A stretch of DNA of 64,000 bases from Candidatus Omnitrophota bacterium (GTDB lineage Bacteria; Omnitrophota; Gorgyraeia; Duberdicusellales; 4484-171), in contig JBAZGN010000001.1 in assembly GCA_041652815.1 (NCBI GenBank), positions 253,855-317,854 on the forward strand, in the 5' to 3' direction. The notes under the pieces were generated by a model that was not told where the DNA came from, made no database searches, and saw nothing but the letters and a program-made list of their open reading frames with translations. The position numbers and the translations under genes were made by a program. Below, in pieces: positions 5,328 through 30,289 of this stretch (positions are counted from its first letter, which is position 1; each line of letters starts with the position of its first letter).

Positions 5328-6479
5328 TCACCTTAGCGCTTTTTGTAGAAAAAATGAAGCCTCTTGTTGTTTTATCTTCAGAATTTGGTTTACTCTGTCA
5401 AAATTTATTTCCGCCGCAAGCTTGTCGTCTGTCAGTTCATCCATGCCGAGAATCAGCCTATCTTCCAACCCAAACATTTTGAGTAAAGAATGAAATCTCG
5501 CCATTCCGCCGATTTCATGCCCTATCGCTAGAAATGGTTTGTTAAAAATGATAGAAAAGACACACCCATGGAATGAATCAGTTACAATAAATTCGGCATC
5601 AAAAAAACCTCGAATCCAATCCGTAACGGGCGGATAGACCCTGTCTTCAAGAGGAGCTTTGGGTGATTTTGTTTTTGCATTTACAGAGAATAGTATTAAC
5701 TTTTTCTTTTGAGCAATAACATTGGCTATCTCTCCCCTTGTTTCGTCCAACAAATAAACCATCATATTCCCCTTGCTCTTTGCAGTGTTTTCCTTTCTGC
5801 AAAGCTCCATATACTCTGAGGCGGATAATAGCATTGTCGGGTCAATAAGATGGATTGCATCTACGCCTAAATACTCTTTACAAAGCCTGACACCAGAATC
5901 CTCACGAACTGATACGGCATTGAATTTCCGTAATAAATTTGCTATTATTTTTGTCATTCTAAAGTCATATTCCCATTCATCAACCCCAAAAGAAGCTGCA
6001 TAAGCAATTCTTTTTACTTTATTAGATTTTACAAAATCTAAAAACATGGGCCTTGTCCAGAGGATACTTTTGAAGATTTCAAAAAAAGAAGGTTTATTCG
6101 GTTTTGTAAACCCCTTACGCCACACTTGATCGCTACCTACTATGTAAGCATCAAAATTATAGATATCAAGCCAATTCATGGCTTTTGCATTTTCAACCGT
6201 GGATGTAACAGGATTGATATATTTACGCACAAAACAAGCCGTATTCTGGCAAATTACTTCCATTTCGAAATTTAACCGCGCAGTTGGCATTTTTATTCCT
6301 AATATAGATTTGGCGACTGCTCTTGCTATAGTAGGAAAACTTAGGCTCTGTCTGCTCCTATTGTTGATTATCAGCCAAGCTTCGTGCCCATATTTTTTCA
6401 AATAAGTTTGCAACGCGAATGCCTGTAGTATACCGCCATAATTAAAATATAACTCTGTAGTCAGAATGCCTATTTTCAT
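5328..6479 (-). CDS. Polysaccharide pyruvyl transferase (CsaB/WcaK family)
   Basis: N-terminal MKIGILT..NYGGILQAFALQ pattern; 383 aa. Confidence 0.65.
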   Translation of the reverse strand: MKIGILTTELYFNYGGILQAFALQTYLKKYGHEAWLIINNRSRQSLSFPTIARAVAKSILGIKMPTARLNFEMEVICQNTACFVRKYINPVTSTVENAKAMNWLDIYNFDAYIVGSDQVWRKGFTKPNKPSFFEIFKSILWTRPMFLDFVKSNKVKRIAYAASFGVDEWEYDFRMTKIIANLLRKFNAVSVREDSGVRLCKEYLGVDAIHLIDPTMLLSASEYMELCRKENTAKSKGNMMVYLLDETRGEIANVIAQKKKLILFSVNAKTKSPKAPLEDRVYPPVTDWIRGFFDAEFIVTDSFHGCVFSIIFNKPFLAIGHEIGGMARFHSLLKMFGLEDRLILGMDELTDDKLAAEINFDRVNQILKIKQQEASFFLQKALR

Positions 6480-26897: not shown

Positions 26898-27208
26898 ATT
26901 TAAAAATGGGAATAAAAACCTTTTTATATATTATCACGGAACACCTGGAAACAATATCTAAAATTATACGAGTAAATGTGTAGCGTTTTGGCTAACATTA
27001 ATAAAGCCTGTGAAAATAGGAAAAATAACAAGAAATAAAAACGCTTATTGGGTAAGTGTTTTATTGATCTTCAAGGAAGGGCATTTGAAGGTGAAACAAC
27101 TTGTTCCGATTCGGCAGAGCCTCATCGGAACCGTTTTTCTTTTTCTAGATGTTGCGACAAATCATCCCCAATTCTGGTTGGCTGATTTGTCGCATTAAGG
27201 AAGAAAAA

Positions 27209-27284
27209 CGGGGACGAAGGGATTTGAACCCTCGGTCACATGCGTGACAGGCATGGGTCTTAAACCAGGCTAGACGACGTCCCC
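27209..27284 (-). tRNA. tRNA-Asp (GTC)
   Basis: GGGGACG acceptor stem; anticodon loop CTGTCAC; T-loop TTCAAAT; folds as a cloverleaf by hand. Confidence 0.85.
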
Positions 27285-27472
27285 GATGAAAATGTATTTA
27301 TAAAGGGTTATTCCTTGATTTTCATCGGCACTGAGGCGAACCCGCCGAAGTGCCTTGCATTCGCACAGCGCATAGTACTTAACGGGTAGCGTATAGTTTA
27401 AGATATTTTATGGAAAAGTCAATTCGCTTTTCTTCTCTATACGTTCTACGCTATCCGCTAACCGCTATAAAA

Positions 27473-27550
27473 TGGTGGGCACTACAGGATTTGAACCTGT
27501 GATCCCTTCCATGTCAAGGAAGTGCTCTAGCCAGGCTGAGCCAAGTGCCC
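27473..27550 (-). tRNA. tRNA-Val (GAC), CCA encoded
   Basis: GGGCACT/AGTGCCC acceptor stem; anticodon loop TTGACAT; TTCAAAT T-loop. Confidence 0.85.
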
Positions 27551-27636
27551 GAAATTAGCTTATAGTTTCTTTACCTCTAAGAACAAAGTTCTTCGAAGCC
27601 CTACCAGCGTTTCACTCAGCGAAGGGCGAAGAAGAA

Positions 27637-27721
27637 TGCCGGAGGTGGGACTTGAACCCACACGTCCCTTACGGAACATCGGATTTTAAGTCCGAGCTGT
27701 CTGCGTTTCCAGCACTCCGGC
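27637..27721 (-). tRNA. tRNA-Leu (TAA) with long variable arm
   Basis: GCCGGAG/CTCCGGC acceptor stem; anticodon loop CTTAAAA; variable-arm hairpin GTTCC-GTAA-GGGAC; 85 nt. Confidence 0.8.
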
Positions 27722-28396
27722 ATCATGAATACTCATTAAGACCGTTTTACTTTTCTGCCAACCCATTCTAGAACAAATACATTCTTGAGCCAATTTATTT
27801 TTTCTCTCCAAACTGAAATTATTTTTATAATAACAGGATTTAAGCACTTCTCTGGCAGCCATTTTACCAAATTTTAAAACATAAATCGCATTTCTCTTAT
27901 CGTTGCGATGAATTTTACCATAAACTTCTAAATATTTTTGTATTTTTTTGTCAAGCCACTCTAAAAATTTTCTTGAACCGGAATAAATTCGCAAAGACCA
28001 TTGTTCGCTAAAATTGGTCGGGTGCTTCCAGCTACGAATGGAACCGTCCCCATCGATTAAGCCCCGTAAAAAATCTGGGAAAAATTCTCTAGCCACTTTT
28101 ACCGCACCTATTGTTAAAGACTTTTTAGGAGTAAGGCCGATTGCTAATAGAAATTCATAAAAATTCTTATTAGCAATCTGTACGTGAAAAGATTTTAGTT
28201 TGTCTTTACCATATTTAATGCCAATTTTATTCTTAATTCCGATTAAATTTATTACTCTTTGAAGAAATTCGTAATCACTGGAAGTTATGTCTATATGCCT
28301 TCCATCCGGCGATAAATTTCCATCGCTGGTAATCAATCCAACTAAATACCAAAGTTTTTTACCCTTTATATTTAGTTCTTTTCGCTTTTGCGGCAT
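27686..28396 (-). CDS. Free-standing LAGLIDADG homing endonuclease
   Basis: Two LAGLIDADG motifs: LVGLITSDGNLSPDG and FLRGLIDGDGSI. The start codon is 7 nt downstream of tRNA-Cys. The 3' end reads 36 nt into tRNA-Leu and stops at its TAA anticodon triplet. Confidence 0.75.
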   Translation of the reverse strand: MPQKRKELNIKGKKLWYLVGLITSDGNLSPDGRHIDITSSDYEFLQRVINLIGIKNKIGIKYGKDKLKSFHVQIANKNFYEFLLAIGLTPKKSLTIGAVKVAREFFPDFLRGLIDGDGSIRSWKHPTNFSEQWSLRIYSGSRKFLEWLDKKIQKYLEVYGKIHRNDKRNAIYVLKFGKMAAREVLKSCYYKNNFSLERKNKLAQECICSRMGWQKSKTVLMSIHDAGVLETQTART

Positions 28397-28403
28397 TATT
28401 ATT

Positions 28404-28478
28404 TGGAGGCGCGGGTCGGATTTGAACCGGCGAATAGCGGTTTTGCAGACCGCTGCCTTACCGCTTGGCTACCGCGCC
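28404..28478 (-). tRNA. tRNA-Cys (GCA), CCA encoded, U73 discriminator
   Basis: GGCGCGG/CCGCGCC acceptor stem; anticodon loop CTGCAAA; T-loop TTCAAAT. Confidence 0.8.
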
Positions 28479-28483
28479 AATAT

Positions 28484-28711
28484 TTATTCTTTTGCCTTTA
28501 CGCGAATTTTTCCTGCAGCAATTTCTCTAAGTGCAGTATCTAAAACCTTTTCCGTGGGTTTTTCTACTAAAGCTTTGTCTCCGTCGGCAAGCTGCAAAGC
28601 TCTTTTTGCTACAAGTATTGTTAGCTTGTAAATAGAACCCAGGCCTGCGCCGATAAGCTTTTCTAAATGGATATATCTTTCATTCATCTTTTCCCTCCTC
28701 AATGAGTGCAT
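28484..28711 (-). CDS. rpoZ: DNA-directed RNA polymerase subunit omega (true start probably the internal Met, MNERYIH...)
   Basis: LTILVAKRALQL...GKI motif; lies upstream of gmk as in many bacteria. Confidence 0.7.
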   Translation of the reverse strand: MHSLRREKMNERYIHLEKLIGAGLGSIYKLTILVAKRALQLADGDKALVEKPTEKVLDTALREIAAGKIRVKAKE

Positions 28712-28798
28712 TATTTTTCCAAGCCATAGTGGCGCAGGAAAAATGATAGCACGAATTGATACTGAGGACGCGATGGATAAGAGCGTCCGAAGTATCTT

Positions 28799-29368
28799 TT
28801 AAGTTGCCCTCAAAATAACTTTTTCCAATTCTTTTAACGACTTGCTTAAATCTTTGTTTATTATAATAGAGTCATACTGCTTGGAAACTTTCATTTCTTT
28901 TTTTGCAAGCGTAATCCTCTTTTGTATGGTTTGCATAGCTTCAGTGCGCATCTTTAAACGTTTAAATAAATCCAACTCGCTCGGCGCGGCTATAAAAAGA
29001 GTGACTATTTTACCTTCTTTTTGCTTTTTTTTCAAATACATTCCTCCTTTTACGTCTATGCATAATATTAGGTTCTTATTTTCTTTTACCGCTCGGTCAT
29101 AAAAATATTTTGCAGTTCCGTAATAATTATCCAAAACCTTTTGGTTTTCAAGGAAAAATCCTTTCTCTCTTAGCTGCAAGAACTTACGTTTGCTGATAAA
29201 AAAGTAATCCCTGCCGTTTTTTTCTTTAGGCCGGATTTTTCTTGTCGTGTATGAAATCGCACGGATAAATTTTCCCTTTATATTTTTTTTACGAAAAACT
29301 TTATTTAGCAGTGTAGTTTTACCTGCGCCGGATGGGCCGGAAAGTATAATTATCGTGGGGGTTTTCAT
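28799..29368 (-). CDS. gmk: Guanylate kinase
   Basis: IIILSGPSGAGKTTLL P-loop; 189 aa. Confidence 0.9.
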   Translation of the reverse strand: MKTPTIIILSGPSGAGKTTLLNKVFRKKNIKGKFIRAISYTTRKIRPKEKNGRDYFFISKRKFLQLREKGFFLENQKVLDNYYGTAKYFYDRAVKENKNLILCIDVKGGMYLKKKQKEGKIVTLFIAAPSELDLFKRLKMRTEAMQTIQKRITLAKKEMKVSKQYDSIIINKDLSKSLKELEKVILRAT

Positions 29369-29509: not shown

Positions 29510-30289
29510 TCACTCAACATTCTGCGCCTGTTCTCTTATCCTATCCAAGTAATTTTTTGACTCGACAATTAGTGGCGCGATATTTTTCTTTTTTGTTTTG
29601 CTGGAAGCTGAATTTAATTCTCGTAAAATTTCCTGCGTCAGAAAATCAATCGACCTGCCTTTAGAAATAATTGCTTTTGCGTTTACTTTCTTCTCCAAAT
29701 CGCTGACATAAAAGGAGGCCAGAGAAACTTCTTCATTGATATCGTCCTTGCCGTTATCCTGCGAAGAAACTGCGGCGCTGCCTTCTTTAATAACCTTTAT
29801 ATTATCTTTTAGCCCCTTTAAACTTTTAAGCATATCCTGCCGTATTACCTCGCCTTGTTTTACTTTAAACTCTAATAGCTTTTTAAGGCCTTCTTTTGCC
29901 GCGGAAAATATCAGGTTCTCCTCCATTTTCTTTTCGCTCCAGGAAACTACTTGAGGAAGGCTGAAGAAATCGTTTATGTTCAGCTGCTGGGAAAGCTTAT
30001 ATTTTTTTGACAGCCTTTTGGCTTCCAGAATATATTTGGCAAGATTAAATTCGTCGATAAAAACATCGCTTTCGATGTGCCCCTTGAGGTATACGTAAAC
30101 TTCAATCTTGCCACGGGTTATTTTTTTCTTTATTTCTTCCTTGATTTGTTCTTCCAAAAGGATATTCTGGGAAGGAAAATCGTGGATTGAAATGTCCAGA
30201 TATTTGAAATTCGCCGAGCGCAAAGTAACCTGTATTGTCTGGGCTTCTTTTCTTTTATAAATATTCGCGTAAGCGGTCATTGACCTCAT
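29510..30289 (-). CDS. yicC: YicC-family stress-induced protein
   Basis: MRSMTAYA N-terminus; 259 aa; conserved yicC-gmk-rpoZ neighbourhood. Confidence 0.75.
   Translation of the reverse strand: MRSMTAYANIYKRKEAQTIQVTLRSANFKYLDISIHDFPSQNILLEEQIKEEIKKKITRGKIEVYVYLKGHIESDVFIDEFNLAKYILEAKRLSKKYKLSQQLNINDFFSLPQVVSWSEKKMEENLIFSAAKEGLKKLLEFKVKQGEVIRQDMLKSLKGLKDNIKVIKEGSAAVSSQDNGKDDINEEVSLASFYVSDLEKKVNAKAIISKGRSIDFLTQEILRELNSASSKTKKKNIAPLIVESKNYLDRIREQAQNVE

Follow-up and report, generated by a model that had tools for sequence, protein, structure and literature searches.

A predicted LAGLIDADG homing endonuclease gene between tRNA-Cys and tRNA-Leu in an Omnitrophota genome belongs to a large, probably mobile family

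The window analyzed here, a stretch of 64,000 nucleotides (nt) from contig JBAZGN010000001.1 of a Candidatus Omnitrophota genome, contains an array of tRNA genes that encloses an open reading frame (ORF) for a LAGLIDADG protein of 236 amino acids (aa). An earlier note on this DNA, made from the letters alone, had placed tRNA-Cys(GCA), the ORF, tRNA-Leu(TAA), tRNA-Val(GAC) and tRNA-Asp(GTC) in this order on one strand, and ARAGORN and Rfam recover the same arrangement (Table 1). The finer geometry described there also holds: the ORF starts 7 nt past the CCA of tRNA-Cys, after the spacer AATAATA, enters tRNA-Leu by 36 nt (36–37 nt, by choice of the tRNA 5' end) and stops on the triplet that serves as the TAA anticodon, and the tRNA-Leu itself is uninterrupted according to both programs. 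A permissive Rfam scan of positions 26900–28900 (E up to 10), the search for an intron core that the note had proposed, returned four tRNAs only, with no group I intron and no match to RF00028, so the ORF does not lie inside an intron; Pfam finds no Hint or intein domain in it. With complete tRNAs on both sides, it is an ORF of its own in an intergenic slot. The hint in the note at the group I intron of tRNA-Leu(UAA) genes is thus not borne out in the window, and becomes relevant for a sister clade of the family that adjoins intron-bearing tRNA-Leu(UAA) genes.

The protein is readily assigned to the LAGLIDADG superfamily. Pfam PF14528 (LAGLIDADG_3) matches two stretches of the ORF, well above the cut-off (E 3.1e-13, 50.2 bits vs 22.5), as expected of the double-motif protein that had been read from the sequence. 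Motif 1 (LVGLITSDGN, approximately residues 16–26) contains the catalytic D25, and motif 2 (LRGLIDGDGS, approximately residues 108–118) the catalytic D117. Both aspartates are invariant in our first alignment of the family (A1), which has 49 invariant columns, and among 88 family sequences the motif 1 residue is kept in 85 and the motif 2 residue in all 88. An AlphaFold2 (AF2) model built with 34 homologues (predicted local distance difference test, pLDDT, 85.2; predicted template modeling score, pTM, 0.83) has the tandem alpha-beta-beta-alpha-beta-beta-alpha topology, and in each half the helices and strands follow one another as expected. The top Foldseek match to this model is the archaeal intron-encoded I-Tsp061I (E 1.8e-13), followed by WhiA, inteins, I-AniI, bI3 maturase and I-DmoI, and also I-SceI. 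Moreover, the family profile matches the sequence of 2dch (I-Tsp061I) at 1.6e-10; a conserved C-terminal extension of approximately 40 aa (CYY...RKxKLA...GWxKSKTV) lies outside this match. On sequence and model, the ORF encodes a predicted monomeric, two-motif LAGLIDADG homing endonuclease with predicted cleavage activity.

Homologs of this protein are numerous and are found in the same place. A protein search yielded 1,224 homologous clusters, of which the 120 listed share 56–85% identity, are mostly 219–225 aa long and come from Omnitrophota where named. A scan of species-representative genomes yielded 170 relatives, and we examined 80 loci (designated here by L numbers). In nearly all 80, tRNA-Leu(UAA) starts 0–15 nt past the ORF stop, or the ORF enters tRNA-Leu(UAA). 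tRNA-Cys(GCA) lies just upstream in most, often 5–24 nt before the start, and leaders as short as that in the window (5–24 nt) occur in about half of the related loci. Where the upstream neighbor has changed, tRNA-Leu is kept: the order is Cys-Val-ORF-Leu in L025, L029, L041 and L049, and Thr-ORF-Leu in L037. The slot is likewise filled in metagenome-assembled genomes (MAGs) labelled Patescibacteria, Elusimicrobia, Armatimonadota and others, at 43–53% protein identity, and two more distant relatives adjoin other tRNA-Leu genes, one ending 6 nt before tRNA-Leu(UAG) (L282, 2501-3265) and one overlapping tRNA-Leu(GAG) by 15 nt (L286, 260-1000). These sequences form a large, site-specific family located directly 5' of tRNA-Leu genes in several phyla. 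It is apparently undescribed: databases name the protein merely ‘LAGLIDADG family homing endonuclease’, and our literature searches returned no account of LAGLIDADG genes that as a family occupy the spacer between tRNA-Cys and tRNA-Leu. The earlier note had suggested that the ORF either colonised the tRNA operon spacer or was left behind in it; a slot filled in several phyla agrees with colonisation, and membership of a large family does not agree with a one-off remnant. We also considered a phage origin, which we rejected, since a scan of viral contigs (IMG/VR) did not find the family and returned only LAGLIDADG relatives of at most 34% identity.

The slot also occurs without the ORF. Scanning metagenome contigs for an exact pattern that requires the 5' end of a tRNA-Leu within 33 nt after the 3' end of a tRNA-Cys, we found that the Cys-Leu(UAA) tandem with a spacer of 3–30 nt is widespread, often after tRNA-Gly(GCC). 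The comparison of orthologous Cys/Leu spacers that had been proposed shows the ORF to be absent from six related Omnitrophota contigs (L241, L253, L272, L270, L196 and L250), which have empty spacers of 6–29 nt and flanking proteins that are 70–93% identical to those of occupied loci and in the same order. A Gly-Cys-Leu array with a short spacer would represent the ancestral empty state of the slot; its order is that of glyW-cysT-leuZ in E. coli. As a separate observation, metagenome contigs (L162–L281) show the array tRNA-Gly(GCC), tRNA-Cys(GCA), tRNA-Leu(UAA) to be widespread in environmental bacteria, with Cys-Leu spacers of 3–30 nt; Arg(CCU), Trp and Leu(GAG) often come before it.

Distances between genomes indicate that the endonuclease gene does not share the history of its neighbors. 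We compared it with flanking host proteins (ThrRS, a CoaC-like flavoprotein, Gmk and ParB, the names inferred from sequence), and distance-matrix correlations are 0.73–0.90 between flanks and 0.29–0.50 between flanks and endonuclease. Earlier Mantel tests of endonuclease against tRNA distances had given weak correlations (0.03–0.24), because tRNAs are short and saturated, and the flanking protein genes were used instead. For instance, the endonuclease genes of L016, L017 and L021 are 75–85% identical at four-fold sites and their flanks 45–76%; flank identity is 45–65% for L016/L017 and L017/L021, and two L016/L021 flanks reach 75–76%. The opposite pattern is found in L016/L034, where flank proteins are 88–92% identical and the endonucleases 69%, and in L041/L025, where the values are 87–91% and 58%. 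Present in some Omnitrophota and absent from close relatives, the gene has, as these comparisons show, moved horizontally between lineages. In the alignment of L016, L017 and L021, high nucleotide identity extends from approximately 6 nt before the ATG to approximately 10 nt past the stop, and the tRNAs beyond both boundaries are host-specific. These sharp boundaries indicate that the mobile unit is essentially the ORF alone, approximately 0.7 kb. With regard to co-conversion, the edges of high identity thus lie within approximately 10 nt of the ORF on each side, yet tRNA-Leu alleles differ between occupied and empty relatives. Two to three of the 80 copies are decayed, which a selfish gene would lead one to expect: L058 has a frameshift and L078 a deletion, a frameshift and an Asp-to-Glu change, and the endonuclease of one Omnitrophota locus (L061, 4001-4825) has an in-frame insertion of approximately 50 aa, rich in charged residues, in its C-terminal part.

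The absence of an enclosing intron or intein, the empty sites, the horizontal transfer and the catalytic residues all support the earlier description of a free-standing LAGLIDADG gene in a tRNA spacer. We consider it likely, with a probability of roughly 0.8, that the ORF is a free-standing homing endonuclease gene, mobile now or until recently, for which the tRNA-operon spacer is a harmless niche. The target of the enzyme would be the tRNA-Cys/tRNA-Leu junction of genomes without the ORF, with the cut at the insertion point or very close to it, a position favored by the sharp boundaries of the ORF. The break would then be repaired from an ORF-bearing copy, with the conserved flanking tRNA genes as the homology, so that the ORF would be copied in; the insertion would split the target and leave the occupied allele immune. 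The slot would be harmless in that the ORF would be transcribed within the tRNA operon and the tRNAs excised by RNase P and 3'-end processing, tRNA processing here taking the role of splicing at endonuclease genes borne by introns. The mRNA that remains would have a leader of 7 nt and be close to leaderless. In the window, where the usual stop has been lost, a full-length product would require the unprocessed precursor, and cleavage by RNase P would give a non-stop mRNA.

Transcription of the ORF within the operon is suggested by the surroundings. From rpoZ to tRNA-Asp we found no terminator-like site on the coding strand and only weak promoter-like matches (a 9/12 match inside tRNA-Cys), and the 7-nt leader has no Shine-Dalgarno sequence, so the ORF is probably co-transcribed with the tRNAs. 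rpoZ is probably part of the same transcription unit as the array, together with gmk. The earlier note had held that the ORF must be co-transcribed; the absence of a terminator-like site makes this plausible.

Several observations weigh against a mobile gene that simply splits its own target. The genomes are MAGs or metagenome contigs, and some of the taxon labels are given as deposited and may be unreliable. Intact copies under strong purifying selection (approximately 77 of 80) are more common than a cycle of invasion and decay predicts, and would also fit a role beneficial to the host. The spacers of empty sites vary in sequence and length and are not conserved, so a target spanning both tRNAs is not obvious. 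Finally, within one host lineage, empty and occupied genomes share 97–100% identity in tRNA-Cys and 93–100% in tRNA-Val, but 77–80% in tRNA-Leu (empty L253, L272, L241 and L270 vs occupied L045, L022 and L017), and with this difference of approximately 20% a simple split-target model falls short. The tRNA-Leu alleles of empty sites are 99–100% alike, even where the host tRNA-Cys genes differ by 21%. From such alleles, part of tRNA-Leu could belong to the target, and the empty sites that survive could be resistant variants by virtue of their tRNA-Leu allele.

The tRNA-Leu comparison bears most directly on an alternative that we regard as rather unlikely, in which the enzyme cuts within the tRNA-Leu body of ORF-less genomes, occupied genomes survive by a resistant tRNA-Leu allele, and in the sister clade a group I intron confers resistance by interrupting the site, as in collaborative (trans) homing. 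The divergence of tRNA-Leu between nearly identical tRNA-Cys and tRNA-Val genes, and the uniformity of the empty alleles, are what this alternative would lead one to expect, as is the constancy of tRNA-Leu, not tRNA-Cys, as the neighbor, both in the five loci with a changed upstream tRNA and in the distant relatives beside tRNA-Leu(UAG) and tRNA-Leu(GAG). However, the near-identical genes of L016, L017 and L021 adjoin tRNA-Leu genes that differ from the first nucleotide, with no co-conversion tract into the tRNA; the 5' 44 nt of tRNA-Leu, anticodon stem-loop included, are identical between the occupied L046 and the empty L250; and the anticodon loop is invariant, occupied and empty alleles being alike. 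The difference in tRNA-Leu had also prompted us to consider a mobile cassette of endonuclease gene plus tRNA-Leu, which we rejected as a general model because it is contradicted by the same two cases, the near-identical genes beside quite different tRNA-Leu genes in L016/L017/L021 and the 44 nt shared by L046 and L250. Faster evolution of tRNA-Leu than of its neighbors is a modest effect (identity of 0.81 vs 0.88–0.89 among the closest hosts) and is not conclusive.

The abundance of intact copies could instead reflect domestication, that is, a LAGLIDADG protein with a host function that binds DNA or RNA and acts on the tRNA operon or in tRNA-Leu maturation, like WhiA or the maturases. In favor of this, the family has very many, well-conserved members, whose ORFs are mostly intact and keep a fixed syntenic position; its structural neighbors include WhiA and the bI3 maturase, and the Pfam WhiA-LAGLIDADG model matches weakly, at 24 bits against a cut-off of 23.2 bits. 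We nevertheless consider domestication very unlikely, given that both catalytic aspartates are kept, that Pfam finds no extra helix-turn-helix (HTH) or other domain, that presence and absence differ among close relatives, that the gene is transferred horizontally and discordant with host genes, and that decayed copies exist.

The conserved protein end is GWxKSKTV, near residue 219, approximately 18 nt short of the tRNA, and most family members add one to six further codons before the stop. Read-through into the tRNA occurs in about 20 of the 80 loci, with the stop set by the reading frame at −15, −21, −30, −37, −47 and down to −170; the −37 stop, on the anticodon, is shared by the window ORF and L035, and the close relatives of the window ORF, P0002 and P0004, also read through. 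Residues 221–236 have pLDDT below 50 in the AF2 model, and the tail is missing from most homologs, which are 219–225 aa long. We therefore rejected a special meaning for the anticodon stop, given that read-through stops vary by frame, the tail is unconserved and the model is of low confidence there. The anticodon stop reported in the earlier note is real, but the weight given to it is not upheld: to judge from the family, it is an incidental read-through in one sub-lineage in which the usual stop position has been lost. Elsewhere in the family, five Patescibacteria-like loci (L056, L065, L068, L072 and L077) have ORFs that extend 47 nt into tRNA-Leu with the identical stop position, which indicates that a read-through variant is inherited within that group.

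One sister clade of the family adjoins tRNA-Leu genes that do contain an intron. One example is L057, a complete genome with the label Deltaproteobacteria (CP064976.1), where 2 nt separate the ORF stop from a tRNA-Leu(UAA) that is interrupted by a group I intron of 237 nt without an ORF (Rfam RF00028, 65 bits). We looked up five of the six nearest listed relatives of the L057 protein (53–59% identity), taking the longest contigs, and in each (L289–L293) a group I intron of 67–77 bits lies inside the tRNA-Leu(UAA) whose 5' end abuts or overlaps the ORF. A group I intron lacking an ORF, in the adjacent tRNA-Leu, is thus found in all six sister loci (Table 1). The exon junction, GGACT, intron, TAAAATCC, suggests that the intron is inserted between positions 33 and 34, a shift of one nucleotide from 34/35, the classic site of the cyanobacterial tRNA-Leu intron. 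No intron was found in the other occupied loci, where ARAGORN reports an uninterrupted tRNA-Leu(UAA) in nearly all and an Rfam scan was added for the atypical ones. None was found either among the pattern matches to ORF-less Cys-Leu tandems, a pattern that could not match the hosts of the intron clade. L057 also contains, approximately 0.8 kb downstream of the intron-bearing tRNA-Leu, an ORF (5750-6361) that, judged by eye, resembles the C-terminal part of a tyrosine-recombinase (phage-type) integrase, which suggests that this tRNA-Leu is also an integration site of another mobile element.

These introns raise the question of whether the endonuclease gene once resided in one, as a relic of an enzyme encoded inside a tRNA-Leu(UAA) group I intron and stranded outside it by intron loss or rearrangement. 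The proximity of the sister-clade genes to intron-bearing tRNA-Leu(UAA) would agree with such an origin, as would the closest solved structure, which is intron-encoded. The ORF lies upstream of the tRNA 5' end, outside any intron, at every locus examined, including the six that have an intron; Rfam detects no intron remnants around the ORF in the window; and the ORF boundaries are sharp and the slot identical in several phyla. On this evidence we judge a relic highly improbable.

In the sister clade, the intron lies within tRNA-Leu, downstream of the ORF and not around it, approximately 33 nt from the endonuclease gene. The family may be a general parasite of tRNA-Leu genes that uses tRNA processing in place of splicing and, in the sister clade, also acts in trans as a mobility factor for the ORF-less tRNA-Leu(UAA) intron, a combined proposal that we consider unlikely. 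If it is true, the intron would either be carried along by co-conversion or shield the target site, and there would be a concrete mechanism for the lateral spread among bacteria of an otherwise immobile tRNA-Leu(UAA) intron. The association may reflect either cooperation between enzyme and intron or merely a common host lineage. In the window itself there is no ORF-less intron in the adjacent tRNA-Leu, so that this feature of collaborative homing is absent there.

The window contains a second LAGLIDADG element, as the earlier note had claimed, in the ORF for Gmd (GDP-mannose 4,6-dehydratase; Table 1). An insertion of approximately 385 aa between ...GILFNHE and SPRRGETF... contains LAGLIDADG motifs, matches LAGLIDADG_3 and ends in HVHN|S; its sequence looks like that of an intein, although the apparent first residue, Thr, is unusual. 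The insertion shows no sequence relationship to the ORF in the tRNA spacer (BLASTP E 0.47), in line with two independent LAGLIDADG genes.

Table 1. Features of the tRNA array and its surroundings in the window, and intron-containing loci of the sister clade
Feature	Coordinates	Strand	Remarks	Evidence
tRNA-Cys(GCA)	28478..28404	minus	CCA encoded; upstream border of the slot of the element	ARAGORN; Rfam tRNA, 63.8 bits
Leader AATAATA, AT-rich, 7 nt	28397..28403	minus	From tRNA-Cys CCA to ATG; no Shine-Dalgarno sequence	
LAGLIDADG ORF, 236 aa, ATG start	28396..27686	minus		
Conserved endonuclease core, residues 1-219	27740..28396	minus		Pfam, alignment, AF2 model, Foldseek
Non-conserved C-terminal tail, residues 220-236	27689..27739	minus	Spacer and first 33-34 nt of tRNA-Leu	
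ORF stop TAA, the anticodon triplet of tRNA-Leu(UAA)	27688..27686	minus		
tRNA-Leu(UAA)	27722..27636	minus	Uninterrupted; invariant downstream anchor of the family	ARAGORN; Rfam tRNA, 51 bits
tRNA-Val(GAC)	27550..27473	minus	Next in array	ARAGORN, Rfam
tRNA-Asp(GTC)	27285..27208	minus	Last in array	ARAGORN, Rfam
rpoZ (RNA polymerase omega subunit)	28711..28484	minus	Directly upstream of tRNA-Cys	Pfam RNA_pol_Rpb6
gmk	29368..28799	minus		Pfam Guanylate_kin
yicC-like	30289..29510	minus		
Gmd ORF, 738 aa	21537..19321	minus	Contains the intein-like insertion	
Intron-containing sister loci	L057 4652-4975; L289 2707-3057; L290 1081-1436; L291 2675-2988; L292 752-1135; L293 2186-2509			

Much is known of free-standing homing endonuclease genes from phages and organelles; for LAGLIDADG enzymes, the usual description is of genes borne by introns or inteins. 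The present family is large and chromosomal and occupies one exact position, at the 5' edge of tRNA-Leu genes, in Omnitrophota, Patescibacteria and other phyla of which little is known. This position suggests another way of inserting without harm, in which tRNA processing by the host frees the flanking tRNAs and no intron is needed. Natural versions of this compact enzyme, whose recognition sequence is probably a conserved one of tRNA genes, are also numerous and could serve as meganuclease scaffolds. The sister clade beside intron-bearing tRNA-Leu(UAA) makes the movement of an ORF-less intron directly testable. For annotation, members of the family that run into tRNA genes are to be read as real genes with lost stop codons and not as gene-calling errors.

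Among known LAGLIDADG proteins, WhiA is a domesticated transcription factor with vertical inheritance, a C-terminal HTH domain and none of the catalytic acidic residues. The ORF product resembles it in its double LAGLIDADG fold and wide distribution in a bacterial lineage, and the two are structural neighbors; unlike WhiA, it keeps both aspartates, has no HTH domain, and is patchily distributed and horizontally transferred. With I-Tsp061I and I-DmoI (PDB 2dch, 2vs7) it shares two motifs, one catalytic acidic residue per motif and a length of approximately 200 aa. Those enzymes are encoded in archaeal rRNA introns and target rRNA genes, whereas the ORF has no intron and its product has a C-terminal extension of approximately 40 aa.

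In Patescibacteria, LAGLIDADG genes are known from introns and insertion sequences of rRNA (PMC11270868), and other work describes endonuclease genes within tRNA introns of bacteria (PMC13011429). These have in common with the present family the superfamily, ultra-small uncultured hosts and structured-RNA genes as targets; they lie inside the RNA gene, in an intervening sequence, and the ORF, in contrast, lies between two intact tRNA genes. Free-standing genes beside tRNAs go unmentioned in a survey of bacterial tRNA introns from 2026. Collaborative or trans homing is known from phages, in F-CphI/psbA and mobE/I-TevIII (PMC6083498, PMC2790892, PMC3984707), and the geometry of the sister clade, a free-standing endonuclease gene beside an intron-bearing gene, is the same. 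Unlike these cases, which are found in phages and involve other nuclease families, the tRNA-Leu of the window is free of introns.

Free-standing endonuclease genes and intronless homing are themselves established, and T4 SegB lies within a tRNA gene cluster (PMC2330249, PMC2988022, PMC3984707). Like SegB and the other Seg and Mob genes, the ORF stands free between other genes, and close relatives differ in its presence or absence; the break-and-repair copying by which those genes are inherited into genomes that lack them is what we propose for the ORF as well. SegB, however, is a GIY-YIG enzyme of a phage genome that spreads in co-infection; the ORF encodes a predicted LAGLIDADG enzyme in chromosomes of uncultured bacterial phyla, and its slot beside tRNA-Leu is fixed at the scale of single nucleotides and common to several phyla.

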